A DNA stretch of 64,000 bases, taken from NCBI GenBank assembly GCA_035354275.1, contig DAOQAU010000001.1:42377-106376 (forward strand). The letters run 5' to 3'. This document shows, piece by piece, positions 388 to 53,319 of the stretch; the stretch's first letter is position 1, and each line of letters starts with the position of its first letter. The position numbers were made by a program, and so were the translations under genes. The notes under the pieces are model-generated. The model worked only from the letters and a program-made list of their open reading frames with translations, made no database searches and was not told where the DNA came from. The stretch is from Candidatus Gastranaerophilaceae bacterium (GTDB lineage: Bacteria > Cyanobacteriota > Vampirovibrionia > Gastranaerophilales > Gastranaerophilaceae).

Positions 388-1755
388 ATGTCAATTATAA
401 TAATGCTTCTTCTTTTAAGTGTATTAATTCTGGTTCACGAAGCCGGACACTTTATTGCCGCGCGTTATTTTAAAATCAAAGTTGACAAATTCGGATTCGG
501 GCTTCCGATAGGACCGACTCTTTATGAAACAAAATGGGGCGATACAAAAATTCTTATTCACGCATTTTTGTTAGGCGGGTATGTCGCATTCCCAGATGAC
601 GAAAAAGATTGTGAGCTTTCAAAAGATTCTCCCGAAAGGTTTATTAATAAACCGGTTTACCAGCGTGCGATTGTAGTTTCAGCCGGTGTTTTTGCAAATA
701 TCTTATGTGCTTTTTTCTTTGTATTTTTAACAGCCGCCCTTTGGGGAAATCTTCCTTCTGGCAAGTACGAAATATATGTAAACGACATCGTTGCGCCCAA
801 ACAAGAAAGCATTTGGCAGTCAGGATTACAAAAAAAAGACAGAATTATTGAAATTAACGGAACAAAAGTAGAGAACACATACGCGCTTTTAGATTTTATA
901 AAAATGAGCAAATCCTATGACGGAAAAATTGATGCAAATACAAAAACGGACAATTATTTGCGGCTAAAAGCCCTAAATTCTGTTTTTACACAAGATGAAA
1001 TCATACCCGAAGGTATTGCGGTCAAATTACCTGAAAAAACTTTTGAAGCACCGGTAAAAATAGAACAAAAAGTCTTAAAAGGAATGAAAAAACACGTTGA
1101 TAAACAGATTTCTTTAAATTCCAAACAGACAAAATTAAGAGATAAGCTCATCGGACAAACAGCTTACATTTCAGACGGAACTTGCACTTTAGATGATTTG
1201 GCTTATGCGATTTCCGATAATTCAAGACCTTTGGATATAAAAGTTTTAAGAAACGGAAAAACAATTAATCTCAAAACTGTTTATGCAAATAAAAAAGGGC
1301 TTTTAGGAATAAAATTGGAAGCAAAAGAGGTTTTAATCCCGACAAAGACCCCTCAACAAGTAATTACAAAAGGGACAAAATACCTTTGGGACAACACTTA
1401 TATGCTTTTATACGGGCTTTACCAGATCTTCAGCGGTCAAATCCCGCTTAAAGACCTGCACGGAATTGTCGCAATAACAAAAGTGGGCGGAGATATAATT
1501 ACAAACAGCGGAATTTTCTTCGGATTGCTTTTAATCGCAATAATCTCAATGGATTTGGCAATAATAAACTTCCTTCCGATTCCCGCACTCGACGGCGGAC
1601 ACATAATGTTTTTGATTATAGAAAAGCTTCGCGGAAAACCCCTTGACGAAAAAGTTATCGACAAAATAGGCTCCGTCGGCTTTGCTTTTCTGATAACATT
1701 AATGGTTTTTGTAATCTTTAACGACATTGCAGGCTTAATTACAAAAAAATTCTAA
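388..1755 (+). CDS. rseP: RIP metalloprotease RseP (M50 site-2 protease)
   Basis: HEAGH zinc motif at the N-terminus, a central PDZ-like region, and the NFLPIPALDGGH motif near the C-terminus. Multiple TM segments. Confidence 0.85.
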   Translation: MSIIIMLLLLSVLILVHEAGHFIAARYFKIKVDKFGFGLPIGPTLYETKWGDTKILIHAFLLGGYVAFPDDEKDCELSKDSPERFINKPVYQRAIVVSAGVFANILCAFFFVFLTAALWGNLPSGKYEIYVNDIVAPKQESIWQSGLQKKDRIIEINGTKVENTYALLDFIKMSKSYDGKIDANTKTDNYLRLKALNSVFTQDEIIPEGIAVKLPEKTFEAPVKIEQKVLKGMKKHVDKQISLNSKQTKLRDKLIGQTAYISDGTCTLDDLAYAISDNSRPLDIKVLRNGKTINLKTVYANKKGLLGIKLEAKEVLIPTKTPQQVITKGTKYLWDNTYMLLYGLYQIFSGQIPLKDLHGIVAITKVGGDIITNSGIFFGLLLIAIISMDLAIINFLPIPALDGGHIMFLIIEKLRGKPLDEKVIDKIGSVGFAFLITLMVFVIFNDIAGLITKKF

Positions 1756-1845
1756 TTTTATAACGAATTTGAAAAATACAGCAAATATATGGTCTAAATC
1801 CCGCTAAATTGTATTATCTTTGTATGATAAAGTGAGGGCTATTAT

Positions 1846-2490
1846 ATGGTTGATAAAATTACAATTGAACTGGATGAACAATTTCTTAAAAAGTTTTTCG
1901 GGCTTACGGAAAAATTTATCCCCGAAGATCAGGAAATAACTCTTTTGATGCTAAGAAAGCAACTCGAAGAAATTGAAGAAGCAATATTTAATGCAAAAAT
2001 GACCTCTTCTGCTGCTGCGGCTGCGCCTGCATATCAAAAACCATCAGGTCCGCAAGCTCCGACAAATGTCGATGCCTTTGGCGAAGAAATACATAACGGA
2101 GATGAGTTCAATGTACCTAAAAAAAGTATTTTGATAATTGATGATCTTGGGGTTATAACTTACCAACTCAGTGTTTTATTTAGGAATATGGGTTATTACG
2201 TTGTTGACTCAAAAGAAATTTATGATGCCATAGAAAAATTCAAAAAAAATAATTTCGACTTGGTTATTATGGATTTATTTATACCGACCGAAAGAGAAGG
2301 TTTTATCTTACTTGAAGAACTGAAAAAGACTTCTCTAAGCAAACAAAAACAAGCAAGAATAGGTATTATGTCGGCCTCTGCCAAAAAAGAACACAAACAA
2401 ATCTGCAAGATGAAAGGTGCCGAATTCTACGTCGAAAAAGTAGATGACTGGCAAAAAGAACTTATTAATGTAATTCAAAATTTAAGTTAG
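1846..2490 (+). CDS. Response regulator with a receiver domain only and a ~95 aa N-terminal extension
   Basis: REC signatures ILIIDDLG, DLVIMDLFIP (acceptor Asp) and IGIMSASAK. An Ala/Pro-rich linker follows the unknown N-terminal region. No output domain. Confidence 0.75.
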   Translation: MVDKITIELDEQFLKKFFGLTEKFIPEDQEITLLMLRKQLEEIEEAIFNAKMTSSAAAAAPAYQKPSGPQAPTNVDAFGEEIHNGDEFNVPKKSILIIDDLGVITYQLSVLFRNMGYYVVDSKEIYDAIEKFKKNNFDLVIMDLFIPTEREGFILLEELKKTSLSKQKQARIGIMSASAKKEHKQICKMKGAEFYVEKVDDWQKELINVIQNLS

Positions 2491-8532: not shown

Positions 8533-9657
8533 CTAAACCCCTACAGGATTTTTTGTTTTATTAATACATTCAACAACCGTATTTACGACCGTTTTTTGCT
8601 CATCAAGCGTCAATTCAGGGAACATCGGCAAAGAAATAACGACTTTGGTATCGGCTTCTGTTGCAGGAAGCGAGCCTTCTTTAACACCCAAATACTCATG
8701 AACTTTTTGCAGGTGCAAAGGTACGGGGTAATAAAGCATAGCACCTATTCCAGCCTCTTGAAGCATTTTGTGAACTTCATCGCGGTTAGGAATTTTTATC
8801 GTGTACTGGTGATAAACGCAGTAAGTGTCATCCAACTCTTTTGGTGTTTGAACGTCAGCGCAGTTTGCAAAAAGTTCATTATATCTGTAAGCATTTTGGC
8901 GTCTTTTTTTATTCCATTCGTCAATATGTTTGAATTTTACTCTCAAAATTGCCGCCTGAACCTCATCAAGTCTGCTGTTTACGCCGATTTCGTCATGGTA
9001 GTATCTGACAGCTCCGCCATGGTTTCTTAAGCCAATAACTCTGTCTTTTATACTTTGAGAATTTGTGGTCAACAGTCCGCCGTCACCCATAGCTCCCAAA
9101 TTTTTTGTGGGGAAGAAACTGAAACATCCCACATCGCCAAATGAACCCACCATTTTGCCTTTGTATTTTGCTCCTATTGCCTGACAGCAATCTTCAATTA
9201 CATAAAGATTGTGTTTTTTTGCAATATCCATGATTACATCCATATTGCAAGGCTGACCGTAAAGGTGAACGGGAATTATCGCCTTTGTTTTAGGTGTAAT
9301 GGCATTTTCTATTTTCTCAACATCAATGTTAAAAGTGTCAGGGTCAATATCTACAAAAACCGGTTTGGCACCCACAATTCCGATTGCCTCTGTCGTTGCA
9401 ACAAAAGTAAAAGCTACAGAAATAACCTCGTCGCCTGCTCCTATGTCAAGTGCTCTAAGTGCAAGATGAAGCGCATCTGTGCCCGAATTAAGCGCAATGG
9501 CATGCTTTACTCCGATATATTCAGAAAGCTCTTTTTCAAGTTCTTTATTGTGATTTCCCAAAATATAAGAACCTGAGCGCAAAACCGCTACAACTTCTTT
9601 TTCAATCTCTTTTCCAATCTTGTCATACTGTCTTTTTAAATCCAAAATAGGTATCAT
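8533..9657 (-). CDS. DegT/DnrJ/EryC1/StrS family PLP-dependent sugar aminotransferase
   Basis: NSGTDALHLAL motif and FSFFPTKNLGAMGDGG with the PLP-binding Lys. 374 aa. Confidence 0.88.
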   Translation of the reverse strand: MIPILDLKRQYDKIGKEIEKEVVAVLRSGSYILGNHNKELEKELSEYIGVKHAIALNSGTDALHLALRALDIGAGDEVISVAFTFVATTEAIGIVGAKPVFVDIDPDTFNIDVEKIENAITPKTKAIIPVHLYGQPCNMDVIMDIAKKHNLYVIEDCCQAIGAKYKGKMVGSFGDVGCFSFFPTKNLGAMGDGGLLTTNSQSIKDRVIGLRNHGGAVRYYHDEIGVNSRLDEVQAAILRVKFKHIDEWNKKRRQNAYRYNELFANCADVQTPKELDDTYCVYHQYTIKIPNRDEVHKMLQEAGIGAMLYYPVPLHLQKVHEYLGVKEGSLPATEADTKVVISLPMFPELTLDEQKTVVNTVVECINKTKNPVGV

Positions 9658-10105
9658 AACTATCTCCTTTATTTCAATTTTTCCGCATCCTCTATTTTAA
9701 GTTTATCACACCCCCGCCAAGCCTTTATATTAACTTAATATGAACCTAAAAAGCTGAAGAATAAACCCCCTCTTGATAATCTCTTTGTTACAATTTCTTA
9801 ACAAAAGTTTTTTTCTGAGGCAATAACTTTTAAAAAAAAAACTTTATATAAGAGTAAGGGAAAAGGAATTATAACTTTAGGGTTAAATTTCAAATAATAT
9901 GTTCATAACAATGAACTATTAAAACAAAGATTTCATTTTATACTCTCTCTCTTAATATCCTCGTGTTTATTTAATGTTTGCTCCAAAAGGGCAAACTTTT
10001 TTTTGCAAGCGAGCAGAGGCACGAACGAAGTGAGAGTCGAACAACAATAATCGGAAACCACGCTTTCCGATTTTGTTGTGAGCGTTGCCGTTTAATGCGA
10101 GCGCA

Positions 10106-15678: not shown

Positions 15679-15918
15679 CTAAACTTCCAAAAAAAGTCTT
15701 TGCCCCACTATATTGGGTCTGCCATTATAATAACCGGCAAAATATCCCCCCTGAACCGGCTTGTTTTTTGCATATCCGGCATAACTTTTTGCCGTTGAAG
15801 AAGTTACAAAAGGATTAGAAAAAGGATTTGAATTTGAAACCGGACTAAGTGCCGTTGTTTTTTGCAAATTATTTGCAGAAAACGCCCTTGACAATAAATT
15901 TACGATGTTGGCAACCAT
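15679..15918 (-). CDS. Small hypothetical protein (79 aa, S/N/P/G/Y-rich)
   Basis: AAGGA ribosome-binding site 6 nt upstream of the ATG. Low-complexity sequence with NPF repeats and a GGYFAGYYNG tail. Confidence 0.4.
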   Translation of the reverse strand: MVANIVNLLSRAFSANNLQKTTALSPVSNSNPFSNPFVTSSTAKSYAGYAKNKPVQGGYFAGYYNGRPNIVGQRLFLEV

Positions 15919-17135: not shown

Positions 17136-17495
17136 TTAAGAAAAAGACATCAAAGCTTTAACAGAACGTGCTGTTTCTCTGACCTCGTCATCTTCGTGAT
17201 TATTTTCAGTATTTTCAAGAACACTGATTGCTTCTTCTTTATCCTTCAACTGTAAAAGTTCGTTAATTGTACTCATTGCAACGCTTGTACTCAAATCGTT
17301 AATTCCTTTTCCTTTTGAAGAAATTACAACTGCAAGCGAATCCTGATTGTTCTTTTTAATAAGTGCTTTAGCTGTAAGTCTTCTTACATCATCATTTTCG
17401 CAATTAGTGCCGACTCTTTCCAGAACATTAACCGATTGTACATCTTCATGCTTTGCAAGTGCTTCTATAATACTGTTTACTCTTTTATTTTCCAT
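17136..17495 (-). CDS. Small HEAT-repeat-like protein
   Basis: Repeated xDDxVRxxAxxAL helices: NDDVRRLTAKALIK and EDDEVRETARSVKAL. Confidence 0.5.
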   Translation of the reverse strand: MENKRVNSIIEALAKHEDVQSVNVLERVGTNCENDDVRRLTAKALIKKNNQDSLAVVISSKGKGINDLSTSVAMSTINELLQLKDKEEAISVLENTENNHEDDEVRETARSVKALMSFS

Positions 17496-17507: not shown

Positions 17508-17975
17508 TTAAATTGTAGCCAATTCGGCTTTAAGCATTTCTTCCAACTCCGAAACCGGTCGTTTTACAAGATTTGAAACCTTATAAGTGCCTGTAAAAGA
17601 CGGCATTTTTGATGTTATTTTGTTGCTTAATTTTGCCATATCAATGTGTATTTCTGATTGTTGAGCTTTTGTCCAAAAATCAGTCGCATTTTGTCTGATT
17701 CTGTTTCCGAAAGACACAACTGAATTCAACCTGGTACTTATTGCAGAGCTCAGGTTTGTTATTGAACCCACAACCGCACTGGACAACATTCTGCTCTTAT
17801 TTTTTGCTCTTTCTATAAGATTTACATTGTTGTTTTTTGTTTCAAATACATCCGCGGTTAAAACGTTTCCCTTAAAGCTTACACCAAAAGGATTGGTGTG
17901 ATTTTTGTCCACTTTTTTAACTGTAGTGGTTCTGAAAAAATTTTTTGAAATATTATTTATGCTCAATTTTTCCAT
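17508..17975 (-). CDS. Hypothetical protein carrying the shared polar N-terminal leader
   Basis: The start is set at MEKLSINNISKNFF...NPFGVSFKGN, with AAAGG upstream. The track ORF extends to 18026. Confidence 0.5.
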   Translation of the reverse strand: MEKLSINNISKNFFRTTTVKKVDKNHTNPFGVSFKGNVLTADVFETKNNNVNLIERAKNKSRMLSSAVVGSITNLSSAISTRLNSVVSFGNRIRQNATDFWTKAQQSEIHIDMAKLSNKITSKMPSFTGTYKVSNLVKRPVSELEEMLKAELATI

Positions 17976-18205: not shown

Positions 18206-19060
18206 TCATTGAAAATTATTGGTAATCGTATAGATATATTCAAGAATTTGTGAGAAATATTCTAAATCGGAATTTCCGTTTAAAATCATATCAGCTTCGT
18301 TTCTGAAGGGCTTAATGTATTTTTCGCCTGCGATTTTAACGTATTCCCAGTGTTTTTGGGCATTACACTCGTCTTGATTTCTGCAAACAGCCCTTGACAT
18401 AAATCGTCTTTGTCTTTCCTGACAATCCGCTTCTATATAAATTTTGATGTCAAAAATTTCTTTAACATCCTTATACATAGTTGACATTCCTTCGACAACC
18501 ACTATTTTTTGAGCTTGTACAGGAATTGATTTTGGCACAGAAACACCTGTGCCGTTAAGCAAATACTGAGGAATTTTTATATCAAGACCTTTTGAAATAA
18601 TTTCCAAATCTTCTTTCAATAAATCAAGCTGAAAACTTTCCGGTGCATCGACGTCGTATCCGTTATCACGAAGAGTATCAAAATCTCCCCAACGGCTTAT
18701 TAAATCTGAAATATCGTTAAAATAATTATCGGAACTTATTATTGTAACGGGAAGGTTAAGTAAGGCTATTGTATCTTTTATTTTGTTGCATATTGTTGAC
18801 TTGCCGCAGGCTGATTCTCCCGTAATTCCGACCAAAATCTTTTTTTGAGGATTGTTTATAAGTCTTTTTGAAAACCTTGAAATAAAATCGGGTCTTACTT
18901 CAATAAAAATAGGCGTATGGTATTTTTTGTCATGGGCAAGAATTTGCTTAAACTTTGACTGAAGATAAAACGCCAGCAGCTCCCTGCCGGTTTTTTGATT
19001 AAAGTCGGGCTTTAAAATTTTATCTGAGGTATTATTTTCTTTTTCAATTAATGCTATCAT
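18206..19060 (-). CDS. Uridine kinase / phosphoribulokinase family (PF00485-like) P-loop kinase, paralog 1
   Basis: GITGESACGKST P-loop, SSDNYF, VVVEG, and the Udk-type order of motifs. It has a ~75 aa N-terminal extension. Confidence 0.7.
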   Translation of the reverse strand: MIALIEKENNTSDKILKPDFNQKTGRELLAFYLQSKFKQILAHDKKYHTPIFIEVRPDFISRFSKRLINNPQKKILVGITGESACGKSTICNKIKDTIALLNLPVTIISSDNYFNDISDLISRWGDFDTLRDNGYDVDAPESFQLDLLKEDLEIISKGLDIKIPQYLLNGTGVSVPKSIPVQAQKIVVVEGMSTMYKDVKEIFDIKIYIEADCQERQRRFMSRAVCRNQDECNAQKHWEYVKIAGEKYIKPFRNEADMILNGNSDLEYFSQILEYIYTITNNFQ

Positions 19061-19322: not shown

Positions 19323-20345
19323 TTAAGCTTGATTTTCTTTTTCTTTAATTTCGTCTTCTTTTTCTTTAGCTGTTTGTTCGCCTTCTGCAATTTTATCAGT
19401 AGGTTGTTCGATTGACTCTTTTGCTTCTTCTACAGCCGCTTTTGCATCTTCAGCCTCTTTTTCTGCGACTTCGCCAATTCCTCTTATTTCAGCCTTTATT
19501 TCTGCATTTTTGTCTTTCTTGCCACCGAACAAACCAAATAAAGCTGCTGCTGCAACACCAACTCCAATAACGGCAACGGCAAGAAGAGCAGGGCTAAACG
19601 CTGCAGCACCGACAACTCCGACAACAGCTCCAGTTGTTGCGTCAACAACTGCTGTTCCAGCAAGCTGAACGGCTATTAAAGATTTTACCCCGACTACCGC
19701 TGCTGCACCAATTCCTCCTACTGCCAATGAACCCAATCCGATTTTTGCCAGTAAACTTTTTTTCCCTGATTTACCTTTTTTTACTTTAGCAAGTATATCT
19801 TTAACTGCGGAATCTGTTGTATCAATATCTTTTGAAACTTTACCAATTTTATCAGCATTAGTCTGAATATCTTCTCCTAAAGAATCTAAAGCAGATGATT
19901 TTTCTTCCAATTTACTTGACGCCTCTGTGTTGTCTGAATTTTGTCCGGTATTATCTTCTGAATCTTCTGTACCGGCTAAATTTAAAGAATACGCACTATT
20001 TTTACCGGCTCCGGTTCCATCTTCTGTCGATATTGATGAAATTTCATCCTTAAGTGTTTGTGCTTGCTCAGCTTTAGAAGAATTACCAGACACAAGTTGC
20101 GAAATGTAATTTGTCATTTCTTGAAATGCATCAACACATTTTTTCATAAGATCCTTTAACCCATCAAAAGAATCTTCTTCTTCGACCATTTCAGAATCAA
20201 TGACAGAATATTCAGCATTATCTATGGCTTCTTCTGCGGTTTTTCCTTCTGTGTTTTCAGTAGAACTTTCTTCTGTTGTCTTTACCTCTTCTTCATTTTC
20301 TATTTGATTAGTTTCAAGAGAATAGTTAAGTGGTTTTATATTCAT
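19323..20345 (-). CDS. Hypothetical acidic protein with a Gly/Ala/Val-rich membrane core
   Basis: 340 aa. The N-terminal 200 aa are E/D/S/T-rich. A ~75 aa G/A/V-rich hydrophobic block (GIGAAAVVGV...VGVAAAALFGLFGG) follows, then a charged helical tail. Confidence 0.55.
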   Translation of the reverse strand: MNIKPLNYSLETNQIENEEEVKTTEESSTENTEGKTAEEAIDNAEYSVIDSEMVEEEDSFDGLKDLMKKCVDAFQEMTNYISQLVSGNSSKAEQAQTLKDEISSISTEDGTGAGKNSAYSLNLAGTEDSEDNTGQNSDNTEASSKLEEKSSALDSLGEDIQTNADKIGKVSKDIDTTDSAVKDILAKVKKGKSGKKSLLAKIGLGSLAVGGIGAAAVVGVKSLIAVQLAGTAVVDATTGAVVGVVGAAAFSPALLAVAVIGVGVAAAALFGLFGGKKDKNAEIKAEIRGIGEVAEKEAEDAKAAVEEAKESIEQPTDKIAEGEQTAKEKEDEIKEKENQA

Positions 20346-24883: not shown

Positions 24884-25747
24884 TTAAATTTCGCAGGCTT
24901 CGGCAATGGCATTAAATATTTTATCGGTAATGACTTCAATATAATCAACAGCAACCATTCCGTTTATAATAACATCAGAAATCTCCATTGCAGGTCTAAT
25001 GTAGCGTTGCGCGGTATGATTCACATCGGCAAACATCATATCTGCAGCTTCTCCGGTTTTTCCTCGTGTAGCTGCACGATTGTACCAACGATCTTTTATT
25101 ACATCAATCGGAGTAAACACATAAACCCTTATGTCCATTATCTCCCTTAAGTCTTCATTCAAAACATAAAGCCCTTCATTTAAGATTACTTTAGCGGGCT
25201 TTTTAACTTCGCCGTCAGATTTTGAAACGCAGGTTACAAAATCATAGTTGGGCGAAACAACGGTATTGCCCTGTTTTAGTTCAATTAAATGCTGTTTCAT
25301 CAAATCAAGATTAACTGCTTTTGGCGTATCAAAACTAAAACCTGTTTTAAATAAAGCTTCGTAGCTTCCCGCATCAATAAGTTCTTTTGAAGTATCATAA
25401 AAATAATCATCGCAACGAATTACGGTATAAATTCCTTCTTTTTTTTCTTTAACGCATGCTTTTACGGTGTTATCGACAAAAGTGGTTTTACCCGAAGCCG
25501 ATTCTCCTGCAATTCCTATAAGAAAAGTCTTTTTCTTATCATGCACGACTCTTTTTGCTATATCAAAAAGAAAATTATTAGTTGTACGCAAAAACAAAGG
25601 CTGTTTTTCTTTTCTGTCTTCGGCAATAATTTTATTTAAGGAGTCAACTATATTAGCCACCAATTCCATTTCATGACGGCTTGAATAAAAATCGTAATTT
25701 GTTAAATTAAAATTGCTTTGCAACATCCTATCCGAAGTTTCTTCCAT
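24884..25747 (-). CDS. Uridine kinase / phosphoribulokinase family P-loop kinase, paralog 2
   Basis: GIAGESASGKTT P-loop, CDDYFYD, and the same architecture and length as 18206-19060. Confidence 0.7.
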   Translation of the reverse strand: MEETSDRMLQSNFNLTNYDFYSSRHEMELVANIVDSLNKIIAEDRKEKQPLFLRTTNNFLFDIAKRVVHDKKKTFLIGIAGESASGKTTFVDNTVKACVKEKKEGIYTVIRCDDYFYDTSKELIDAGSYEALFKTGFSFDTPKAVNLDLMKQHLIELKQGNTVVSPNYDFVTCVSKSDGEVKKPAKVILNEGLYVLNEDLREIMDIRVYVFTPIDVIKDRWYNRAATRGKTGEAADMMFADVNHTAQRYIRPAMEISDVIINGMVAVDYIEVITDKIFNAIAEACEI

Positions 25748-25908: not shown

Positions 25909-27114
25909 ATGAAAAAATCAATAAAGGATTTAGGCGACATAAAAGGCAAAAGGGCACTGGTGAGAGTTGATGTTAACGTTCCTCTCGACGAAAACAAAAA
26001 CGTGACAGACGACACAAGAATTCAGGCTATTATTCCGACAATAAAGTTTTTACAGGAAAAAGGCGCAAAAATAATTCTCATGGCGCATTTGGGAAGACCA
26101 AAAGGCGAATGGAATATGGAATTTACACTTGCTCCTGTTGCAAAAAAACTTTCTAAAGTCTTAGGACAAGAGGTTTTATTCATTTCAACTCCGATAGGTC
26201 AAGGTGCCGAAAAAGATTTAACAGAGCTTAAAGACGGTCAGGTTGCCTTATTGGAAAATATTCGTTTTTATAAAGCCGAAGAAGCAAAAGACGATGACAT
26301 GACATTTGCCAAAGAACTTGCAAAACTAGGCGATTTTTACGTTAATGATGCTTTCGGTGCTGCGCACAGAAATCACACTTCAACATCAAAACTTGCAAAA
26401 GTTTTAAAACCGGCTGTTTCAGGATTTTTAATGGAAAAAGAAATAAGATGTCTGGGAAATGCCCTTAATAATCCCGTAAAACCTTTTACCGCAATAGTAG
26501 GCGGTGCTAAAGTTTCGACCAAAATCGGGGTTTTGGAAAACTTAATCGATAAAGTGGACAACCTGATAATCGGCGGGGGCATGGCTTACACGTTTGTCAA
26601 AGCAAACGGCGGCAAAATCGGAAATTCAATCTGCGAAGACGACCAGCTTGAAGTCGCAAAAGAAGTAGAGAAAAAAGCTGCCGCAAAAGGCGTTAAAATA
26701 ATTATGGCAAAAGATGTTCTTGTAACAGACGATTTTTCAGGAAACGGTACAAACAAAATCGTAGATGTTTATGAAATCCCCGACGGCTTTGAAGGAGTTG
26801 ACGCAGGCCCTGAAACTCAAAAAGCGTTTGAAGCTGTAATCAAAACCTCAAAAACAATTCTTTGGAACGGGCCTGTAGGTGCGTTTGAAAACGACAAATT
26901 TACTCAAGGCACAAAAGCTGTTGCACTTGCGGTTCAAGAAGCCACAAAAAACGGCGCGGTAAGCGTTCTTGGAGGCGGCGATACCGTTGCGGCGGTTAAA
27001 AAATACAAATTGGATGAAAATACTTTCACCCACATTTCAACAGGCGGCGGCGCAAGCCTTGAATTTATCGAAGGCAAAGTGCTTCCTGGCGTTGACGCTT
27101 TAGATGATAAATAA
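25909..27114 (+). CDS. pgk: Phosphoglycerate kinase (canonical copy)
   Basis: 401 aa. RVDVNVPL, MAHLGRPKG, NDAFGAAHR and GGGDT motifs. No N-terminal extension. Confidence 0.96.
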   Translation: MKKSIKDLGDIKGKRALVRVDVNVPLDENKNVTDDTRIQAIIPTIKFLQEKGAKIILMAHLGRPKGEWNMEFTLAPVAKKLSKVLGQEVLFISTPIGQGAEKDLTELKDGQVALLENIRFYKAEEAKDDDMTFAKELAKLGDFYVNDAFGAAHRNHTSTSKLAKVLKPAVSGFLMEKEIRCLGNALNNPVKPFTAIVGGAKVSTKIGVLENLIDKVDNLIIGGGMAYTFVKANGGKIGNSICEDDQLEVAKEVEKKAAAKGVKIIMAKDVLVTDDFSGNGTNKIVDVYEIPDGFEGVDAGPETQKAFEAVIKTSKTILWNGPVGAFENDKFTQGTKAVALAVQEATKNGAVSVLGGGDTVAAVKKYKLDENTFTHISTGGGASLEFIEGKVLPGVDALDDK

Positions 27115-28910: not shown

Positions 28911-29603
28911 ATGTCATATAGGGGAAAAAAATTACTAAAAATAATGCAAAATGCTAATAATTACAATAATTTTGTAATTAATTTAATTTTAAAATCAATC
29001 GTTGATAAAAACTTTAAAACCCTTGATTTTGGAGCAGGATATGGTTTTTTTGCTAATCTTTTAAGAAAAAGCGGGGTTAGTAATATCAAATGTGTCGAAA
29101 TAGACGAAGAATTAAGCGAACATTGCAAAAATCTTGATTTTTTTGTGTTTAAGAATCTGCATGACATAGAAAATAACTCTTATGATTTTATTTATACCCT
29201 TAATGTTCTTGAGCATATCAGAGATGACAAAGCGGTTTTACTTGCACTAAAAGCAAAATTGAAAAAAGAAGGGAAAATTTTTATTTATGTTCCTGCTTTT
29301 AAATTATTATATTCATCCTTTGACAAAAAAATTCGCCACTGCAGAAGGTACAAAAAAGAAGATTTGATTCCGTTTTTAGAAAACAACGGATTTGAAATTT
29401 TAAATGCAAAATATGTTGACAGTTTTGGGTTTTTCTTAGCTCTAATATACAAATTTATAAACAAAAACGACGGTGAAATTAATATGTTAAGCGTTAAAAT
29501 ATTTGATAAAATTTTATTCCCTGTCGGAAGAATTTTTGACAAAATTATCTTTGAAAAATTTTTAGGGAAAAACCTTATTGTAGAAGCAAAACTTATTCAA
29601 TAA
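28911..29603 (+). CDS. Class I SAM-dependent methyltransferase
   Basis: LDFGAGYGFFA motif I, and a DFIYTLNVLEHI motif. Confidence 0.72.
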   Translation: MSYRGKKLLKIMQNANNYNNFVINLILKSIVDKNFKTLDFGAGYGFFANLLRKSGVSNIKCVEIDEELSEHCKNLDFFVFKNLHDIENNSYDFIYTLNVLEHIRDDKAVLLALKAKLKKEGKIFIYVPAFKLLYSSFDKKIRHCRRYKKEDLIPFLENNGFEILNAKYVDSFGFFLALIYKFINKNDGEINMLSVKIFDKILFPVGRIFDKIIFEKFLGKNLIVEAKLIQ

Positions 29604-30597
29604 TTTTTATAATAAGTTCTTTGGCGGTTTTTGAGGCTTGCTCAAAAACCGCTTTATTTGTCCAAAAATCATCGCGTTCAATATATTTTTTTACAATTTT
29701 TCTTGCGTAAGAGCCGACGGAAATTCCGTTGAAATCAATTCCGAAAATTTTTGCAAGCTCTGCGGTCTTAGAATTTGTTCCGCCTGAAATTAAAAGATAA
29801 ACAGGCAGTTTTTCGTTAGCTATAATTTCTGCCATGGCAACTGCAGGAAGTGTTGTTTTAAAATCATCTTCGCCTCCGGACATCGGGTTTCCGTCTGCCT
29901 GAATTATTGTTGTATAAAGTTTTCTGTTTTTTATTAAATTTTTAATCCTGTTTAAAACTGCTTCATTTGATAGTTTTGACCTGTCAATACAAATACTCAG
30001 CATTCCGTCAAAGTTTTTGTTTAAATAATTCCATCTTTCCTGAACATCTTTTTCATCTGTGCCGGAAGCATGCAATTCAATACAGGTGAAGGGTGAAGGG
30101 TGAAGGGTGAAGAGAGGAAAAAATATGTCTTCTATCGGCTTATTTTTTTGATATATTTCAATAGCACTATGTTTACAGGTTTTTAAACATCTTGCACAGC
30201 CGATACATTTTTCTTCGATAACCATAAAATCAGGGTTGATGGCTTTTTGCAGGCAGGAATCAATGCAATTGACACATTTTTTGCAAAATTTTTGATTGAT
30301 TTTTGCTTTATTAAAATGCGGCTCGCCTTTTATTCCGACACTTATGCAAAAATGGTAATCAGATAAGTTTTTTTTGTCCGTAACCCTTAGGATGCCTTTT
30401 TGTGCAGCCTCAATAACTTCTTTATGCGGAGATAGGTCAAAAAATCTGCAGCCGGATGCAGCATAAATTGCAACAAGTTTTTCGACTTCGTCTAAATCCT
30501 CGTTTCCCGCCCCGCAAATTAACTTGAAACATTTTCTGCTTTCTAAAAGTTTTTGCAATCCGCATTGTCGGGATTGCAATCCCGACCTACCTCTCAC
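29593..30597 (-). CDS. 4Fe-4S dicluster domain protein, LdpA/DUF561-like
   Basis: FKLICGAGNED N-terminal block and two ferredoxin-type motifs, CKKCVNCIDSC and CIGCARCLKTC. The start is uncertain: the track ORF begins with GTG inside a repeat tract. Confidence 0.55.
   Translation of the reverse strand: MRGRSGLQSRQCGLQKLLESRKCFKLICGAGNEDLDEVEKLVAIYAASGCRFFDLSPHKEVIEAAQKGILRVTDKKNLSDYHFCISVGIKGEPHFNKAKINQKFCKKCVNCIDSCLQKAINPDFMVIEEKCIGCARCLKTCKHSAIEIYQKNKPIEDIFFPLFTLHPSPFTCIELHASGTDEKDVQERWNYLNKNFDGMLSICIDRSKLSNEAVLNRIKNLIKNRKLYTTIIQADGNPMSGGEDDFKTTLPAVAMAEIIANEKLPVYLLISGGTNSKTAELAKIFGIDFNGISVGSYARKIVKKYIERDDFWTNKAVFEQASKTAKELIIKIIE
30083..30117 (-). repeat. Heptamer tract embedded in-frame in the Fe-S protein gene
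   Basis: The plus strand reads CAGGTGAAGGGTGAAGGGTGAAGGGTGAAGAGAGG. The coding strand encodes PLFTLHPSPFT. Confidence 0.8.
30567..30586. other. Perfect 20-bp palindrome
   Basis: GTCGGGATTGCAATCCCGAC, between the rfbA stop codon and the Fe-S protein gene. Confidence 0.85.
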
Positions 30598-33484: not shown

Positions 33485-34312
33485 TCAGCTTTTTTGATTT
33501 ACCAAACTATGTACTATTTTGCTGAATTTTTCTGCATCTAAGCACGCTCCGCCGACAAGACCGCCATCAATGTTGCTTTGAGCAAATAATTTGTCTGCAT
33601 TGCTATCATTTACACTTCCGCCGTATAAAATTGAAACATCTGCCGCGTTTTGTTCGCCATATATTTTTGCAATTTCATTTCGTATCATTCGACACATTCT
33701 GTCAGCTTCATCGGCATCACAGGTTTTTCCTGTATTAATTGCCCAAATAGGTTCGTATGCTATAACAACTTTTGTTATATCTTCTTCTTTAATATTTTTT
33801 AATGCTTTTATAACCTGTGTAGAAACCACATCATCGGCATCGCCTGCTTCTCTTTGTTTTAAAGATTCACCCACGCACACAACAGGCATTAACCCTTTTT
33901 CAAGTGCGGAAAGTGTTTTTGCGTTAACTTGTTTATCGGTTTCTGCAAATTTGCCTCTTCTTTCGGAGTGCCCTATTATGACAAAATCCGCTCCTGCTTC
34001 TTTGTACATATCCTGAGATATAGCCCCTGTAACAGCTCCGCCTTTTTCTATGCCAAGATCGGCTTCCTGCCCGCCCAATTTGATATTTGCCATATCTACA
34101 TAATTTCTACCCTCTTTAACTTTACAAAAAGCCAACGCCGTTGGAGCAAAGCCTACATAAATATCGTTATGAGTAGGCAAATCCAACATTTCAAAAGCAC
34201 TTCTGTTAATAAGTTCTGATGTTTCTTTCGGGCTTTTGTTCATTTTCATATTTCCTATTACCATAGGTTTACCAGTGAAATTCATATTTGTTTGTATTGA
34301 ATTAATTCTCAT
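33485..34312 (-). CDS. tpiA: Triose-phosphate isomerase with a 14-aa N-terminal leader
   Basis: GNMKMN, IGHSERR and AYEPIWAI(N)TG motifs. The ATG at 34312 has an AGGA ribosome-binding site upstream. The leader MRINSIQTNMNFTG precedes the canonical KPxxxGNxKMN start. Confidence 0.92.
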   Translation of the reverse strand: MRINSIQTNMNFTGKPMVIGNMKMNKSPKETSELINRSAFEMLDLPTHNDIYVGFAPTALAFCKVKEGRNYVDMANIKLGGQEADLGIEKGGAVTGAISQDMYKEAGADFVIIGHSERRGKFAETDKQVNAKTLSALEKGLMPVVCVGESLKQREAGDADDVVSTQVIKALKNIKEEDITKVVIAYEPIWAINTGKTCDADEADRMCRMIRNEIAKIYGEQNAADVSILYGGSVNDSNADKLFAQSNIDGGLVGGACLDAEKFSKIVHSLVNQKS

Positions 34313-34376
34313 CTTTTATCCTTTCTTCTGAAATACAAAGCAAAGATATAAAATATCTTTGCTTTGTATAAATAAT

Positions 34377-35657
34377 TTATGCTTTTATATCAAGATTTTT
34401 TGCCAATTCGACAGCTTTGGTTGCTTTATCTGTTGCATCCATTGCCTGACCTGAAGAATTTAACATATCGGTTTTTCTTGCGCCTATTGTTTCAAGAGTT
34501 TTCATAATAGGTTTTCCGTAAGTTCTGGGGTCAATAGATGCTTTATCTGTAACGTCAAGTTCTCCTGCGACATTTTTGAACGTTCCAACATAGCCCAGTC
34601 TAAAATCAGTATCTACGTTAACTTTTGAAATACCTCTAAGCGTTGCTTCTTTATACATTTCTTCGGGAACACCTTTTCCAAAATAATTAGCAGTATTTGA
34701 TTTCATTGCCTCTATTGCGCTTAAAACAGTCAAAGCACCTGCTCTGGAATTAACTAAATCATTAATACTGTTTTCTAAGGTTTCAAATTTTTTACGGGGA
34801 ATAACCACGCTTTGATTAAACATGTCAATCAAATCTTTTGGGGCACTTGACGCACCGTGTAATACAAAAGGATATTGTCTCCATCCTGCATCACCGGGCT
34901 TTTTACCTATGTTTTCGGGCAATATTGCTTCGACCGCTTTTTTAATTTCAGATAACCTTTCGAAATCTAATTGCGGTTTTTCGTCAGGACGGAATTTAAC
35001 CGCACCGTGGGATGTTCCGATTGAAATTGCAAGCGAATCACAACCGGTTTCTTTTACAAACCTTGCCGCCTCTTGAGGGTCTGTAAATTTAGAAGTTTTA
35101 TTTGAAACTTCATCTTCAACACCTGCAAGTTTTCCCAATTCTGCTTCTACAAAAATACCTTTTGAATGTGCATAATCAACAACTTCTTTTGTTAATCTGA
35201 TATTTTCATCCAACGGAAATTTTGAACCGTCAATCATAACAGAATCAAATCCGCCGTCAATACACTCCTTACATACTTGGAATGTGTCGCCATGGTCAAG
35301 GTGAAGCATTACGGGAATACCTTTTGCCTCTTCTTTTGCAACTTTTACCATTTGAACCAAATAAGGAAGCCCCGCATAATCTCTTGCACCTTTAGATGCT
35401 TGAATAATTAAAGGGGATTGTGTTCTTTTTACCGCATTAATTATCCCGTGGACATTTAAAAGATCGTTCACATTAAACGCCGGTATAGCATAACCTTTTT
35501 CTAAAGCATGCTGATAATATGCTCTTGTCTGTGCAAGTTTTTGTGCCGGTGATAACTCTGTATTATTGCCAAAATTTACTTTTTGAACATTTGTTCTTTG
35601 TACCAATGCAATATTTTTGTTTGCATAAAACCCCTGTGTTTGTAAATTAACCCTCAT
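34377..35657 (-). CDS. fba: Class II fructose-bisphosphate aldolase with N-terminal leader and C-terminal extension
   Basis: GYAIPAFNVN, LHLDHG and VLHGASS motifs. The start is set at MRVNLQTQ, with AAGGAG 9 nt upstream. The track ORF extends to 35723. Confidence 0.9.
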   Translation of the reverse strand: MRVNLQTQGFYANKNIALVQRTNVQKVNFGNNTELSPAQKLAQTRAYYQHALEKGYAIPAFNVNDLLNVHGIINAVKRTQSPLIIQASKGARDYAGLPYLVQMVKVAKEEAKGIPVMLHLDHGDTFQVCKECIDGGFDSVMIDGSKFPLDENIRLTKEVVDYAHSKGIFVEAELGKLAGVEDEVSNKTSKFTDPQEAARFVKETGCDSLAISIGTSHGAVKFRPDEKPQLDFERLSEIKKAVEAILPENIGKKPGDAGWRQYPFVLHGASSAPKDLIDMFNQSVVIPRKKFETLENSINDLVNSRAGALTVLSAIEAMKSNTANYFGKGVPEEMYKEATLRGISKVNVDTDFRLGYVGTFKNVAGELDVTDKASIDPRTYGKPIMKTLETIGARKTDMLNSSGQAMDATDKATKAVELAKNLDIKA

Positions 35658-35754
35658 TATTTTTAACTCCTTAAACTGTTTACAACATGCTTTAAAAAGC
35701 GTAAAAATATTTTTTGCTACCAAATTTTAAAAAAATTACATTTCTTAATAACAA

Positions 35755-35790
35755 TAGGGCGGCGGATTTTTTAAAAAATCCGCCGCCCTA
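35755..35790. terminator. Perfect 36-bp palindrome, probable terminator or insulator hairpin
   Basis: TAGGGCGGCGGATTTTTT/AAAAAATCCGCCGCCCTA, between the tail-fibre-like pair and fba. Its stem is related to the hairpin at 22821-22851. Confidence 0.6.
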
Positions 35791-35806
35791 TATTATTTCA
35801 ATAAAA

Positions 35807-36154
35807 TTACAACTCCGCCAACTGTTGTCTTAAATCAATTATTTGCTGTGTGTAATATTCAAGCCAGGTTTGTTCTGTTGTTTCATCTTTAACTTCGGGC
35901 TCTGCGATTGCCCTTATTCTTTTTATATCAAACTCTTCTATTTGAGTTTTCAAATTTTCGATATCGGCTTCTCTTTGTTCTTGAATTCTTGCCTGAGCAT
36001 ATTCTTGAGTGTGAGAAATATCAGTTAATATTCCGTCAATGACTCTATATTTTTCGGGCTCAAAGGTCGCATAGTCAATATCTACATAAACATAATCCAA
36101 ATAAGGATTTTCGCACCAGCTTAATAATTTATTTTCTTCAATTTCTACGTACAT
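35807..36154 (-). CDS. Hypothetical protein, phage tail-fibre accessory/chaperone-like
   Basis: 115 aa acidic protein directly downstream of the tail-fibre-like gene. Its C-terminal helix (IKRIRAIAEP...WLEYYTQQIIDLRQQL) resembles proteins seen next to phage tail fibres. Pattern-level call only. Confidence 0.4.
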   Translation of the reverse strand: MYVEIEENKLLSWCENPYLDYVYVDIDYATFEPEKYRVIDGILTDISHTQEYAQARIQEQREADIENLKTQIEEFDIKRIRAIAEPEVKDETTEQTWLEYYTQQIIDLRQQLAEL

Positions 36155-36209: not shown

Positions 36210-37223
36210 TTATGTTCCCTTCGTTGGGAAAAATTTAAGGTGTTTCCACGAACTTCCGTCATATTCATAATTAAGTTTATAATAGATACCCTTAGGAATA
36301 GGAATAAAACCCCATGCCCCATAACCTTGCCCTGAGTGATTAAACAAAAGATTACTTGTCCAATTTGTTCCGTCAAAGCTGTAGGAAAATGTTAATCCGA
36401 AACCGCAACCTACCATAACAAATCCGTCAGATTCGGCAAGATAAGAAGTGTTCCAACTCTTTGATACCCCGCTTGAATAATTTGGCATCGGCAAATTAGT
36501 TATGGATTTTGCCAAATTTGTAGAAGCCTTTATCGCTGAATTTAAAGTTATATCATAGTCATTCTGATTGTAAGGGAAAGTTTCAACCGCGGTGATGACT
36601 CCGCCTGCAATTGTTACTTTACCCAAAGGAATATCCAAAAATTCCACATCCGTGCCGCTTGTATATTTTATTGCTTTAAGAGGTTCAACACTTGTATTTA
36701 GCCAAATATCCCCTTCAACCAATGTCGGACGGGTTGCCTGCTTGTAAATATTATTAGCAAGCGAATATACGTTTCCGCTCGTTGAAATAAAAACATTATG
36801 CGCCCCGTTAGGCTTTCCGCTCATACTCAATGTCCCTACAGAAGTAAAAGTTGCAAAAGTTCCTCTTGCGTTAGAAATTATTAAGCTCGGATAAGAACCT
36901 CCGACTTTAAAAGACACTGACATACTTGAATAACTCAATAAATCACCGGCTCCGTTTGTAACATTTCCGGATTTTACACAAAATCTTGTTTCGGCTGCGT
37001 TGATTTTAGAATTCAAGTCCGTTGACAAAGAATCCAACTGCGATTTATTGATTGCATTTGTAGATGTTGTAGCAGCAGCTACATTAAAAGCTTGTGTAGA
37101 ATTTCCTGCTTTATCTGCTTTTTCCGAAAGAGCAATGCTCACCGCCTGAAAATTTTCATTGATTTCCTGTGCTTTTGCTTTTGTTCCGGGCACAAATTCT
37201 ATTAACGATAAATATCCCGACAT
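36210..37223 (-). CDS. Phage tail-fibre-like protein
   Basis: The N-terminus SLIEFVPGTKAKAQEINENFQAVSIAL...AINKSQLDSL matches the common tail-fibre N-terminal pattern. The body is Ser/Thr/Gly/Asn-rich and beta-like, and the C-terminal lobe is aromatic-rich. Confidence 0.55.
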   Translation of the reverse strand: MSGYLSLIEFVPGTKAKAQEINENFQAVSIALSEKADKAGNSTQAFNVAAATTSTNAINKSQLDSLSTDLNSKINAAETRFCVKSGNVTNGAGDLLSYSSMSVSFKVGGSYPSLIISNARGTFATFTSVGTLSMSGKPNGAHNVFISTSGNVYSLANNIYKQATRPTLVEGDIWLNTSVEPLKAIKYTSGTDVEFLDIPLGKVTIAGGVITAVETFPYNQNDYDITLNSAIKASTNLAKSITNLPMPNYSSGVSKSWNTSYLAESDGFVMVGCGFGLTFSYSFDGTNWTSNLLFNHSGQGYGAWGFIPIPKGIYYKLNYEYDGSSWKHLKFFPTKGT

Positions 37224-51537: not shown

Positions 51538-53319
51538 ATGTCTATATCAATATCAGGACTAGGCTCAGGTTTACCCGTAGATACCTGGATAGAAAAATTA
51601 TTAGCCCTAAAACAAGCAAAAATAGATGAAATTTCACAAGAAAAAACTTTTGCCGGATATTCAAGTTCAGCTTTGAGTACTATAAAAACATCTTTCAATA
51701 CTCTTTTATCTTCAATGCAAAAAGTCACCGATTCAAGATTCGGCTCTACAAGCGATCTTTTTGCGCAAAAAACCGCAACATCTTCCGATTCAAATATATT
51801 GACGGCATCTGTTACGGCTCTTGCCTCAAAACAAACCGTGAGTGTTTCTGTATCACAATTAGCAAGTTCGACTGTCGCAAAAAGCGTAAATACGGCTTCT
51901 GCTAAAATGACCGGAACAACCACTGTGAGCTCTCTTGCAAACGGCGGGGTAACCGAAGGTAATTTCAGTGTTTATGTAAACAACACCAAATACAGCATTT
52001 CCGTTGCGTCAACAGACACCTTAAATAACATTTTAGGAAGAATAAATTCTCAAACAGGGATGAGTGCAACTGTTACCGACGGCAAAATAACAATTTCGGA
52101 CCCTGCCCAAACAGCAAATATTGTAGTGGGCTCAAATTCTGACACCACAAATTTTGCAAATATTGTTGCTCTAAAGAAAAACGCCCAGGGTGCTTATGTA
52201 AGCAACCAATCTGTTTTGCTGGCTAACACATCGGCAAACCTTACTTCTGCAAATGCAGGATTTGCACAGCAAATCAACACAAGTTCTTTTAAAATAGGAA
52301 ATGCTACATTTAATGTTGATTCCAGTACAACTTTGAATGGCTTGATTTACGAAATTAATAACAGTGAAGATGCCGGTGTAAATGCTTATTGGGATACAGG
52401 TGCAGGTAAATTGGTTTTAACCTCAAAAACAACCGGGGCTTCAAACATCAACGTTCAAAATCTTTCAGGCAATTTCACCGATGTAATGGGGCTTACAGCC
52501 TCAACTTTTAATCCCGACGGAAGTATTGCAACAACAAAACTTGCAGATAATACCCAAACTCTGGGGAATCTTGCAACGCTTACAATAAACGGAACCTCTA
52601 TGATTTCATCTTCAAACACAATTACAAGCGATATTTCAGGAATTACCGGTTTAACCCTTAATTTAAAATCGATAAATACTGAAGAAACCCCTACAACAAC
52701 AATAACAATAGAAACAAACAATTCAAGTCTTAATTCTGCAATAAGCGATTTTATATCAAACTTCAATGAGGTAATTGCAAATGTTGATGAAGCGACCGGA
52801 AGCGACGGTTACCTCAACGGAGAAAGCGTTTTAGTAAGTATTCGAAACAACTTGCGAATGACGGCAACAGCATCTGTCGATATTGACGGAAACTACAAAA
52901 CCCTTGCAAGCATAGGAATCACCACAGGTGCGGTGGGATCAGATATTAATGCCAACACCAACCAGCTTCAAATTGATTCAACAAAACTTGCAGCTGCGTT
53001 GGCTGATGACCCTGATGCTGTCAAAAAACTGCTTTTAGGTGATGATACACACGACGGGGTTTTCAAAAAACTCGAATCCATAATTGACAGTTCTATGGAT
53101 TCATCTTACGGATATTTCACGACAAGAAGTGCGACCTTAAGTGAAAATATCTCAGATTTAACAGACACTATTACAAAAAAGACAGAAGAACTCGGAGACT
53201 ACAAAATTGAATTGCAAGATAAATTCAACCAAATGGATCAACTGATTGCAACACTTCAAAACCAATACAGCAAAGTCATTTCGGCTTTAAGCACAATTAC
53301 TTCAAACAGTTCTTCATAG
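51538..53319 (+). CDS. fliD: Flagellar filament capping protein FliD
   Basis: SISGLGSGLPVDTWIEKLL N-terminus, an S/T/N-rich middle, and a C-terminal coiled coil (DQLIATLQNQYSKV). Confidence 0.85.
   Translation: MSISISGLGSGLPVDTWIEKLLALKQAKIDEISQEKTFAGYSSSALSTIKTSFNTLLSSMQKVTDSRFGSTSDLFAQKTATSSDSNILTASVTALASKQTVSVSVSQLASSTVAKSVNTASAKMTGTTTVSSLANGGVTEGNFSVYVNNTKYSISVASTDTLNNILGRINSQTGMSATVTDGKITISDPAQTANIVVGSNSDTTNFANIVALKKNAQGAYVSNQSVLLANTSANLTSANAGFAQQINTSSFKIGNATFNVDSSTTLNGLIYEINNSEDAGVNAYWDTGAGKLVLTSKTTGASNINVQNLSGNFTDVMGLTASTFNPDGSIATTKLADNTQTLGNLATLTINGTSMISSSNTITSDISGITGLTLNLKSINTEETPTTTITIETNNSSLNSAISDFISNFNEVIANVDEATGSDGYLNGESVLVSIRNNLRMTATASVDIDGNYKTLASIGITTGAVGSDINANTNQLQIDSTKLAAALADDPDAVKKLLLGDDTHDGVFKKLESIIDSSMDSSYGYFTTRSATLSENISDLTDTITKKTEELGDYKIELQDKFNQMDQLIATLQNQYSKVISALSTITSNSSS

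Follow-up and report, generated by a model that had tools for sequence, protein, structure and literature searches.

Spatial organisation of metabolic enzymes is known for the glycosomes and flagella of eukaryotes and, with other pathways, for bacterial microcompartments (BMCs), and short peptides that sort or dock enzymes are already familiar as a kind. The tag described here has a motif and a cargo set that are new. It was found in a 64 kb stretch of DNA from a Candidatus Gastranaerophilaceae bacterium (assembly GCA_035354275.1, contig DAOQAU010000001.1, positions 42,377 to 106,376; 33–38% G+C), referred to below as the window. In this window, triosephosphate isomerase (TPI), a fructose-bisphosphate aldolase (FBA) and a second phosphoglycerate kinase (PGK) begin with polar N-terminal leaders of one two-part design, the parts of which are called motif A and motif B. 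Gastranaerophilaceae are an uncultured gut lineage of the Melainabacteria, the non-photosynthetic relatives of cyanobacteria. The best match of the window TPI, at 97% identity, is a protein from a Candidatus Gastranaerophilaceae bacterium. We consider it about 45% probable that the tag is a docking or targeting peptide which acts in the cytoplasm and brings together the enzymes of a glycogen-to-ATP set, and we propose that it is specific to the Gastranaerophilales-type lineage. Full-text literature searches gave no description of such a tag, nor any report of enzymes organised in this way for bacterial glycolysis. For comparison, related contigs were fetched through orthologues and about 200 kb of related sequence were read; the taxonomic placement of the more distant contigs rests on their similarity to Melainabacterial genes.

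Leaders of three glycolytic enzymes and their common motif

The tpiA gene (33485–34312, minus strand) encodes a TPI that is matched by the Pfam TIM model (2.3e-79) over residues 16–269. The 14-residue leader ahead of this core, MRINSIQTNMNFTG (34271–34312, minus strand), contains MRINSIQT as motif A and NMNFTG (34271–34288) as motif B. The fba gene (34377–35657, minus strand) encodes a divergent paralogue of class II FBA (Pfam F_bP_aldolase, 5.5e-90, from residue 43), which starts with a leader of 42 residues and also contains an insertion of about 70 residues. In this leader (residues 1–42; 35532–35657, minus strand), motif A is MRVNLQTQGF (35628–35657) and motif B is QKVNFGN (35565–35585). 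The second, divergent PGK (PGK2; pgk2, 42975–44414, plus strand) is 40% identical to PGK1, and its Pfam PGK domain starts at residue 58, after a 57-residue leader (42975–43145, plus strand) with motif A MKIYAINN and motif B DSVNFTC (43068–43088). PGK1 itself (pgk1, 25909–27114, plus strand) is a canonical untagged enzyme, matched by Pfam PGK from residue 5 and having no extension. No model of Pfam-A or NCBIfam covers the leader, and every match begins after it. The first-pass annotation had started the TPI reading frame 14 residues ahead of the core at an ATG with a Shine–Dalgarno site, had assigned about 40 extra residues and an upstream AAGGAG to FBA, and had described the second PGK as extended too; the gene calls and extensions hold as it described them.

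Shine–Dalgarno sequences (aaagga, aaggag, aaaggagg and gaaagg) are located 5–9 nt ahead of all four leader ATGs. The promoter and 5' untranslated region (UTR) of fba, with the AAGGAG site, occupy positions 35658–35760 (minus strand) in the DNA alignment of window positions 35600–35810 (minus strand) with positions 8745–8960 of L001, a locus from an 83%-identical species (TPI 83–84%). The fba reading frame can also be read from a TTG located 22 codons further upstream, and one gene-calling pipeline used this codon (448 aa); the start conserved in all orthologues is the ATG with AAGGAG. The tag therefore has a practical consequence for annotation, with the aldolase already mis-started by one gene caller. 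TPI is catalytically intact, with the K, H and E catalytic columns invariant in the TPI alignment (A1). Judging from the invariance of catalytic columns in both the TPI and FBA alignments, the tagged proteins are enzymes and not relics; they are probably paralogues with a distinct role.

A comparison of 34 leaders indicated the consensus M-[RK]-[VI]-N-[SF]-I-[NT]-Q for motif A, which stands at the extreme N-terminus, and [DNQ]-[SK]-[VI]-[SN]-F-[TGK]-[GAC] for motif B. Between them lies a variable polar linker of 0–50 residues, composed of N, S, Q, T and K, and the whole tag ranges from 9 to 60 residues, being 9–14 residues long in TPI. The leaders contain 13% N, 10% S, 8% K, 7% T, 7% Q, 6% F and 3% Y. 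The pattern proposed in the first-pass annotation (M-[RK]-[IV]-x-x-[IL]-[NQ] near the start, then [VM]-[NS]-F-[TGK]) came close to these consensuses and was too narrow.

The similarity of the leaders was assessed with position weight matrices of the first eight residues (motif A) and of seven residues around the Phe (motif B), always built without the tested protein's own family. Among 967 candidate starts in the window, the leaders of TPI, FBA and PGK2 ranked 4th, 5th and 4th, respectively, the ranks above them being presumably taken by other window leaders, which remain in the training set. They scored higher than 2000, 1998 and 2000 of 2000 residue shuffles of the same leader. Two control sets with a total of 1.25 Mb of DNA were scored. 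Measured against loci from Clostridia (397 kb, 2530 ATG starts), the leaders of TPI and PGK2 are within the top 0–0.04% and that of FBA is at about 0.7%. The unrelated metagenomic loci (858 kb) contain 7901 starts, of which only 3 scored at least 22; one belongs to a genuine leader-type aldolase, and the other two are false. The excess over shuffled and control sequences that the first-pass annotation had made the measure of its motif is thus present for all three enzymes, and an origin of the similarity in composition or chance is ruled out by the own-family-excluded matrices, the shuffles and the two control sets.

Both control sets are by-products of searches for further leaders. When genome contigs were searched with a profile of the TPI alignment, only a single related species was found; all other matches were Clostridia TPIs that have GNMKMN and lack a leader, and these were used as controls. 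A metagenome scan with the FBA alignment mainly picked up motifs common to all FBAs; a single new leader-type FBA (L034) was obtained, and the remaining loci served as controls. In viral contigs, the MR[VI]NSIQ pattern at the DNA level and the family alignment of the protein encoded at 17508–17975 (see below) found chance matches or none.

Conservation and portability of the tag

The leader is translated. The TPI orthologue P0004 (...TSFTGAPTIIGNMKMN) has no internal Met ahead of the conserved GNMKMN strand, and for this reason an internal start is impossible in this protein. Five TPI orthologues, which are 56–98% identical, all have an extension of the same design (MRINSIQTNMNFTG, MNIYSINSINFTG, MRVNLFSTVGFTG, MRVNSIQNYNYFKG and MNIQSIQS...TSFTG). 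Eight further leader-type FBAs (P0122–P0128 and L034), 50–74% identical, keep the leader; it starts with M-[RLQ]-V-N-[FL]-x-x-Q-x-[FY], and [VI]-[NS]-F-[GTQE] follows 10–35 residues on. The PGK2 leader is kept in P0382–P0384, and analogous leaders are present in P0397 and P0471. On the whole, the design of the tag is conserved across TPI, FBA and PGK orthologues down to about 40–55% identity. The leader is absent from the canonical Gastranaerophilales FBA P0173 (316 aa), which is 44% identical, as it is from PGK1 in the window. As to the untagged copies for which the first-pass annotation had asked, one exists for PGK in the same genome and an untagged FBA is present in the Gastranaerophilales; the leader is retained in the orthologues of all three enzymes.

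When the PGK2 leader is compared with that of an 82%-identical species, not a single indel is observed, and non-synonymous changes affect 10 of 57 codons in the leader and 77 of 422 in the core. By this measure, the leader is as constrained as the catalytic core. An internal translation start, named in the first-pass annotation as a refutation of the leader, is contradicted both by this constraint and by P0004. At conserved leader residues, the synonymous codons vary: Ser is encoded by TCA or AGT, a switch between TCN and AGY, and Val by GTT, GTA, GTC or GTG. This variation argues against an explanation at the RNA level, and the codon comparison indicates that selection acts on the leader peptide and not on the RNA.

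The tag is also portable. In L001, fba is missing from the locus, and its promoter, 5'UTR and codons 1–5 (MRVNL) are joined in frame with motif B of tpiA, giving MRVNL|FSTVGFTGKP. From the alignment of the two loci, it appears that the deletion created a working hybrid tag, which was retained by selection. A different kind of change can be noted when window positions 34260–34320 are compared with positions 9990–10050 of L003, which comes from a near-identical sister strain. Here, about 40 nt of the TPI leader form an isolated divergent patch, including a 3-nt indel, between flanks that are near-identical, and both versions of the leader fit the motif. This pattern suggests either local recombination or a diversifying turnover of the tag. 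In addition, the upstream terminator hairpin shows compensatory changes between the window and L003.

In the window genome the leader is on the divergent PGK2, whereas the PGK that carries it in another lineage shares 69% identity with the untagged PGK1. By these three observations, the tag is a portable module that moves between genes. The coexistence of tagged and untagged PGK in one genome suggests two pools of the enzyme.

The tagged TPI has GNMKMN in place of the usual GNWKMN. Its nearest untagged relatives, about 49% identical, are Clostridia proteins (loci L008–L030). Since they share the GNMKMN substitution, the sequences hint that the tagged TPI paralogue was acquired from Firmicutes.

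Other carriers, a candidate HEAT-repeat partner and neighbouring genes

In the related loci, the tag occurs on several other proteins. A phosphoglucomutase encoded beside a tagged tpiA has the leader MRISSIQANLMSNVNFTS, with Pfam domain I beginning at about residue 60. Beside a tagged PGK are encoded an adenylate kinase (leader MQITKIKN...SIQKINFTGTD, ADK domain from residue 71) and a GH77 4-alpha-glucanotransferase (leader MKVSPICI...NNLISFNGLN, domain from residue 63). The tag is also carried by a 5'-nucleotidase/UshA-like metallophosphoesterase that has no signal peptide, by two paralogous membrane proteins with two transmembrane (TM) segments, by a 504-residue TM protein and by two proteins without a known domain (236 and 348 residues); a 59-residue protein consists of little beyond the tag itself. 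In the 21-kb locus L033, six to seven of 15 genes are tagged. The cargo of the tag is a coherent module that comprises glucan remodelling, the conversion of glucose 1-phosphate to glucose 6-phosphate, the ATP-yielding aldolase–TPI–PGK segment and adenylate kinase. The idea that one tag is shared by three glycolytic enzymes, with which the first-pass annotation began, is thereby extended to phosphoglucomutase, GH77 and adenylate kinase of the same pathway neighbourhood. For the two-TM proteins, both termini, and hence the tag, are predicted to be cytoplasmic because of the positive C-terminal flanks after TM2 and the acidic inter-TM loop in L033_3445.

A small helical protein with a disordered, motif-rich N-terminus is encoded in the window at 17508–17975 (minus strand); its N-terminal part (17841–17975) reads MEKLSINNISKNFF...TNPFGVSFKGNVLTADVFE. 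The family of this protein contains at least 140 clusters at 50% identity, with members of 140–180 residues and no known domain. Conservation is highest in the N-terminus, which is predicted to be disordered and reads ...TNPFGVSFKGNxLTADVFE. The NPF and DVF elements do not vary among 28 divergent members, in which GVSFKGN is the majority sequence; in nine closer members, GVSFKGN is mostly invariant. In the AlphaFold2 model, residues 1–52 are coil and the remainder forms long helices. Two further Phe motifs are present in the window protein, VVSFGN (residue 87) and MPSFTGT (residue 125), the middle one being largely conserved in the family as NSVVSFG.R. The own-family-excluded score of this leader is marginal (rank 12; 45 of 2000 shuffles; 1.5% of controls). 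The inclusion of this hypothetical protein in the tag class, as made in the first-pass annotation, is thus only marginal by score and has the strongly conserved, motif-bearing N-terminus of the family in its favour. With this moderate support, the protein is probably a tag-bearing scaffold or adaptor.

The conserved operon partner of the 17508 gene encodes a 119-residue HEAT-repeat protein (17136–17495, minus strand; Pfam HEAT_2, 1.4e-6). In all three loci examined (the window, L122 and L123), the HEAT gene begins 2–20 nt downstream of a 17508-type gene. The HEAT protein (about 119 residues) is well conserved, whereas its upstream partner is only 41% and 27% identical in L122 and L123, respectively. 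Extended peptides and Phe motifs are common ligands of HEAT repeats, which makes this protein a reasonable candidate for a receptor. By the adjacency of the genes, it is the first candidate receptor of the tag. A PDB sequence search with the HEAT protein returned nothing useful. Downstream of the 17508-like/HEAT pair of L123, a truncated ORF (1685–1897, plus strand) starts with MDLKLKQIVNNNPIQQKQDKQDINFGCG; it has a strong motif B and no motif A and may be another variant of the tag.

Several neighbouring genes were also considered. The ORF at 19323–20345 (minus strand), which the first-pass annotation had listed as a partial match, has no motif B and does not reach the score threshold, and it was dropped as a tag carrier. 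It encodes a protein of 340 aa that has no known domain. The N-terminal half of this protein is very acidic, residues 198–276 (about 80) form a hydrophobic block rich in Gly, Ala and Val, and the C-terminus is acidic and rich in Lys and Glu. The ORF stands in the same gene string as a PRK-like kinase and the 17508/HEAT pair. Two paralogous P-loop kinases of the PRK/uridine-kinase family (18206–19060 and 24884–25747, both minus strand) have N-terminal extensions of about 75 residues; these were dropped too, having neither motif and scores below the threshold. The first kinase gene lies just upstream of the 17508/HEAT pair, in a region outside loci L001 and L003. The second is divergent from pgk1 and conserved beside it in both loci.

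An ORF at 15679–15918 (minus strand; 79 aa) and an ORF of L031 (14285–14464, minus strand; 59 aa) encode the same C-terminus, ...[LV]FLEV before the stop codon; the fetched loci, about 1.6 Mb in total, gave no further ORFs with this ending. SNPFSNPF in the 79-aa protein is reminiscent of the NPF that is invariant in the 17508 family. Directly upstream of fba are the genes at 36210–37223 and 35807–36154 (both minus strand), and the position of this pair is conserved in L001 and L003. The 337-aa protein of the pair has a weak YadA-stalk-like match and the 115-aa protein a weak match similar to T7 gp14; by these matches, the two look like phage tail-fibre-type proteins. The gene at 29593–30597 (minus strand), conserved in L001 and L003, encodes a homologue of LdpA, present here in a non-photosynthetic lineage. 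LdpA is an Fe–S protein of the cyanobacterial circadian input pathway. The window also encodes a cyanobacterial-type split ATP synthase, type IV pilin-like proteins, PilT, FliD, DnaK, the glycine cleavage system and rml genes.

Possible functions of the tag and comparison with known systems

In the AlphaFold2 model of FBA, built from an eight-sequence alignment, the core is confident, residues 1–32 have pLDDT (predicted local distance difference test) values below 30, and the chain is coil until the first helix at residue 37. The tag is therefore predicted to be a disordered tail with two short linear motifs. Docking of the leader onto its own enzyme was rejected, as the model leaves the FBA leader disordered. 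The absence of a helix before FBA residue 37 and the coil of residues 1–52 in the 17508 protein are likewise not consistent with the amphipathic helix of a BMC encapsulation peptide, and the first-pass annotation was correct in not seeing such targeting helices here. It had also denied a Sec, Tat or lipoprotein signal, and this holds across the 34 leaders. The maximal Kyte–Doolittle mean over 10 residues does not exceed 1.72 (median 0.60), and there is no h-region; the twin-Arg expression matches 0 of 34, and no L-x-x-C lipobox was seen on reading them by eye.

We infer a docking action, a cytoplasmic location and a receptor role for the HEAT protein. Motifs A and B would be short linear motifs that, in extended form, are bound by one shared partner, located in the cytoplasm at or close to the membrane. 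The binding would gather an enzyme set that would convert stored glucan to triose phosphates and ATP, namely the GH77 glucanotransferase, phosphoglucomutase, aldolase, TPI, PGK and adenylate kinase. The tagged two-TM membrane proteins and the coiled-coil protein could anchor or scaffold the assembly. The receptor would be the small HEAT-repeat protein whose gene shares an operon with that of the tag-bearing coiled-coil family. The first-pass annotation had left the choice between a shared localisation, assembly and export signal; its core, the shared tag, is strengthened by the conservation and portability of the tag and by its recurrence on other enzymes of the module.

Four observations weigh against docking in the cytoplasm. 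The approximately 200 kb of related loci contained no gene that was recognised as coding for a receptor, compartment or shell. The link to the HEAT protein consists of adjacency in three loci, through a protein whose membership in the tag class is marginal. The TPI tag ends 2–3 residues from the first beta-strand, which is tight for a docking peptide. Finally, 5'-nucleotidases of the UshA type are usually exported in other bacteria, and the UshA-like enzyme found here has the tag instead of a signal peptide.

The last observation fits a reading in which the tag is a Sec- and Tat-independent export signal, recognised by flagellar type III export or an unknown lineage-specific system, for example, which would bring the glycolytic enzymes to the cell surface, into the periplasm or out of the cell. 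FliD (51538–53319) and, in L031, FliMN/CheX indicate that the organism is flagellated, and the tag shares with type III signals its N-terminal position, polar and disordered character, richness in Ser, Thr, Asn and Gln and uncleaved appearance. Its MR[IV]N start resembles flagellin starts; beyond these four residues, the flagellin link that the first-pass annotation had offered as speculation finds no support. Known type III signals, however, have no conserved motif, while that of the tag is strongly conserved; PGK and adenylate kinase need ATP/ADP, which are absent outside the cytoplasm; and two-TM proteins with a putatively cytoplasmic N-terminus would be odd secretion substrates. The TPI tag is just 9–14 residues long, and FliD, the sole flagellar substrate in the window (MSISISGL), is not among the top tag scores. 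The membrane proteins, the ATP/ADP-dependent cargo and the short TPI tag argue against flagellar type III export, and we regard export as unlikely.

Quite unlikely, in our estimate, is a related reading, in which the tag sorts the glycogen-to-ATP module into an undescribed compartment, or exports it so that ATP is made outside the cytoplasm, through a dedicated receptor or translocon, the first candidate for which would again be the small HEAT-repeat protein. Such a compartment would, by analogy, be a prokaryotic functional counterpart of the glycosome or of flagellar glycolysis, and this part shares the same low estimate.

The end of motif B raises the question of processing. A conserved Phe is followed by small residues (T/G/K-G), the TPI tag ends exactly where canonical TPIs start, and the 59-aa tag-only protein could be a competitor or regulator. 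The tag could then be a regulatory pro-peptide or degron, recognised by a protease, chaperone or adaptor and either removed, for instance by a cut beside the invariant Phe in the manner of Prp, or setting the stability of a conditionally expressed enzyme set. Its end loosely recalls the Prp-cleaved leader of L27 and phage capsid proteins in Firmicutes (MLKLNLQFFA|SKKG), which also stands on unrelated proteins and has (I/L)-x-(I/L)-Q...F before small or basic residues. That leader, however, is a single nine-residue motif and is always cleaved, whereas two separated motifs with a linker of 0–50 residues are atypical of a cleavage site. The L-[QN]-x-F-[AF] expression matches 0 of 34 leaders, no L27 or Prp gene was found in the fetched loci, and no protease gene is consistently adjacent. 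The tagged membrane and coiled-coil proteins are better suited to a role in localisation, and processing or degradation as the function of the tag is doubtful.

The composition of the leaders and their predicted disorder would also allow the tags to bind each other, with F and Y as stickers in an N/Q/S/T-rich spacer, so that the enzymes condense or form filaments together, similar to hypoxic glycolytic bodies. By its lineage, the organism is an obligate fermenter, and the three Phe motifs of the 17508 protein (GVSFKGN, VVSFGN and MPSFTGT) would make it multivalent. The residue positions (V/I at −2, S/N at −1, F, G at +2 and the M-R-V-N start) are nevertheless tighter than compositional stickers would need, the signal is lost in shuffled leaders, and most enzymes have only two motifs, so we consider this very unlikely. 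An artefact of mis-called starts, AT-rich codon bias or a shared mRNA element, for which only the short TPI tag and the internal Met of the window copy would speak, is extremely improbable in view of P0004, the strong Shine–Dalgarno sites, the indel-free PGK2 leader with core-like constraint, the varying synonymous codons, the own-family-excluded and shuffle tests and the low number of false matches (2 among 7901 starts in 858 kb).

If the tag is a docking or sorting signal, a widespread gut lineage would organise its central carbon and adenylate metabolism in space by a portable peptide code. In any metagenome-assembled genome of the clade, the tag allows its cargo to be listed; being short and naturally swapped between enzymes, it could also serve as a synthetic scaffolding tag.

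In function, the tag comes nearest to three described systems: BMC encapsulation peptides, encapsulin cargo-loading peptides and a targeting signal of glycosomal enzymes. The encapsulation peptides of BMCs (PduP, PduD) are similar to the tag in being short N-terminal extensions with a poorly conserved linker, carried by several enzymes of one pathway, and portable. They are amphipathic helices of about 18 residues that bind shell proteins, whereas the tag is a predicted coil, two-part and Asn/Ser/Gln-rich, with a V-x-F core, and unlike them it also occurs on TM proteins. No shell gene was seen in the loci read: the families PF00936 and PF03319 are missing among the called genes of L001–L006, L031–L033 and L120–L124 and among the scanned window proteins. 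The cargo-loading peptides of encapsulins (...GSLxIGSLKG) also place a short, conserved, extended motif of alternating hydrophobic residues at the end of a disordered tail, by which different enzymes are docked to one partner, and VSFKG superficially resembles GSLKG. However, they are usually C-terminal, with a single motif of a different consensus (G-S-L-x-I-G-S-L-K type), and their cargo consists of ferritin-like proteins, peroxidases and desulfurases; no encapsulin family was seen in the loci read.

The peroxisomal targeting signal type 2 (PTS2; R-[LVI]-x5-[HQ]-[LA]), as in trypanosome aldolase, is N-terminal, of nonapeptide scale, starts with R-V and directs glycolytic enzymes; the R-V-N-F-x-T-Q-x-F of motif A is similar to it. 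The spacing is off by one residue, and the expression [RK]-[LVIQ]-x5-[HQ]-[LAF], applied to about the first 20 residues, matches 0 of 34 leaders; moreover, PEX7 and the peroxisome machinery are eukaryotic, and the tag needs the second motif B. Closer in cargo are the targeting extensions of eukaryotic flagella, those of trypanosome adenylate kinases and of sperm and Chlamydomonas glycolysis, where N-termini of about 50 residues mark glycolytic ATP enzymes and adenylate kinase for local ATP supply. They address axonemal structures and have no sequence relationship to the tag, and the likeness is an analogy. The starts MKIYAINN and MNIYSINS recall the extended signal peptide region (ESPR; MNKIYR...) and the YSIRK signal; in both of these a Sec h-region invariably comes next, whereas none follows the tag, as the hydropathy values given above indicate.

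The last resemblance is to the RVxF docking motifs of PP1. The groove that binds them is eukaryotic, and the basic residue is not conserved in motif B, so the resemblance is one of binding style only. The expression [RK]-x(0,1)-[VI]-{P}-[FW] matches 13 of 34 leaders, and sequences such as MRVNF, QKVNF and NNVSF would suit an extended V-x-F peptide that places two hydrophobic side chains in a groove.

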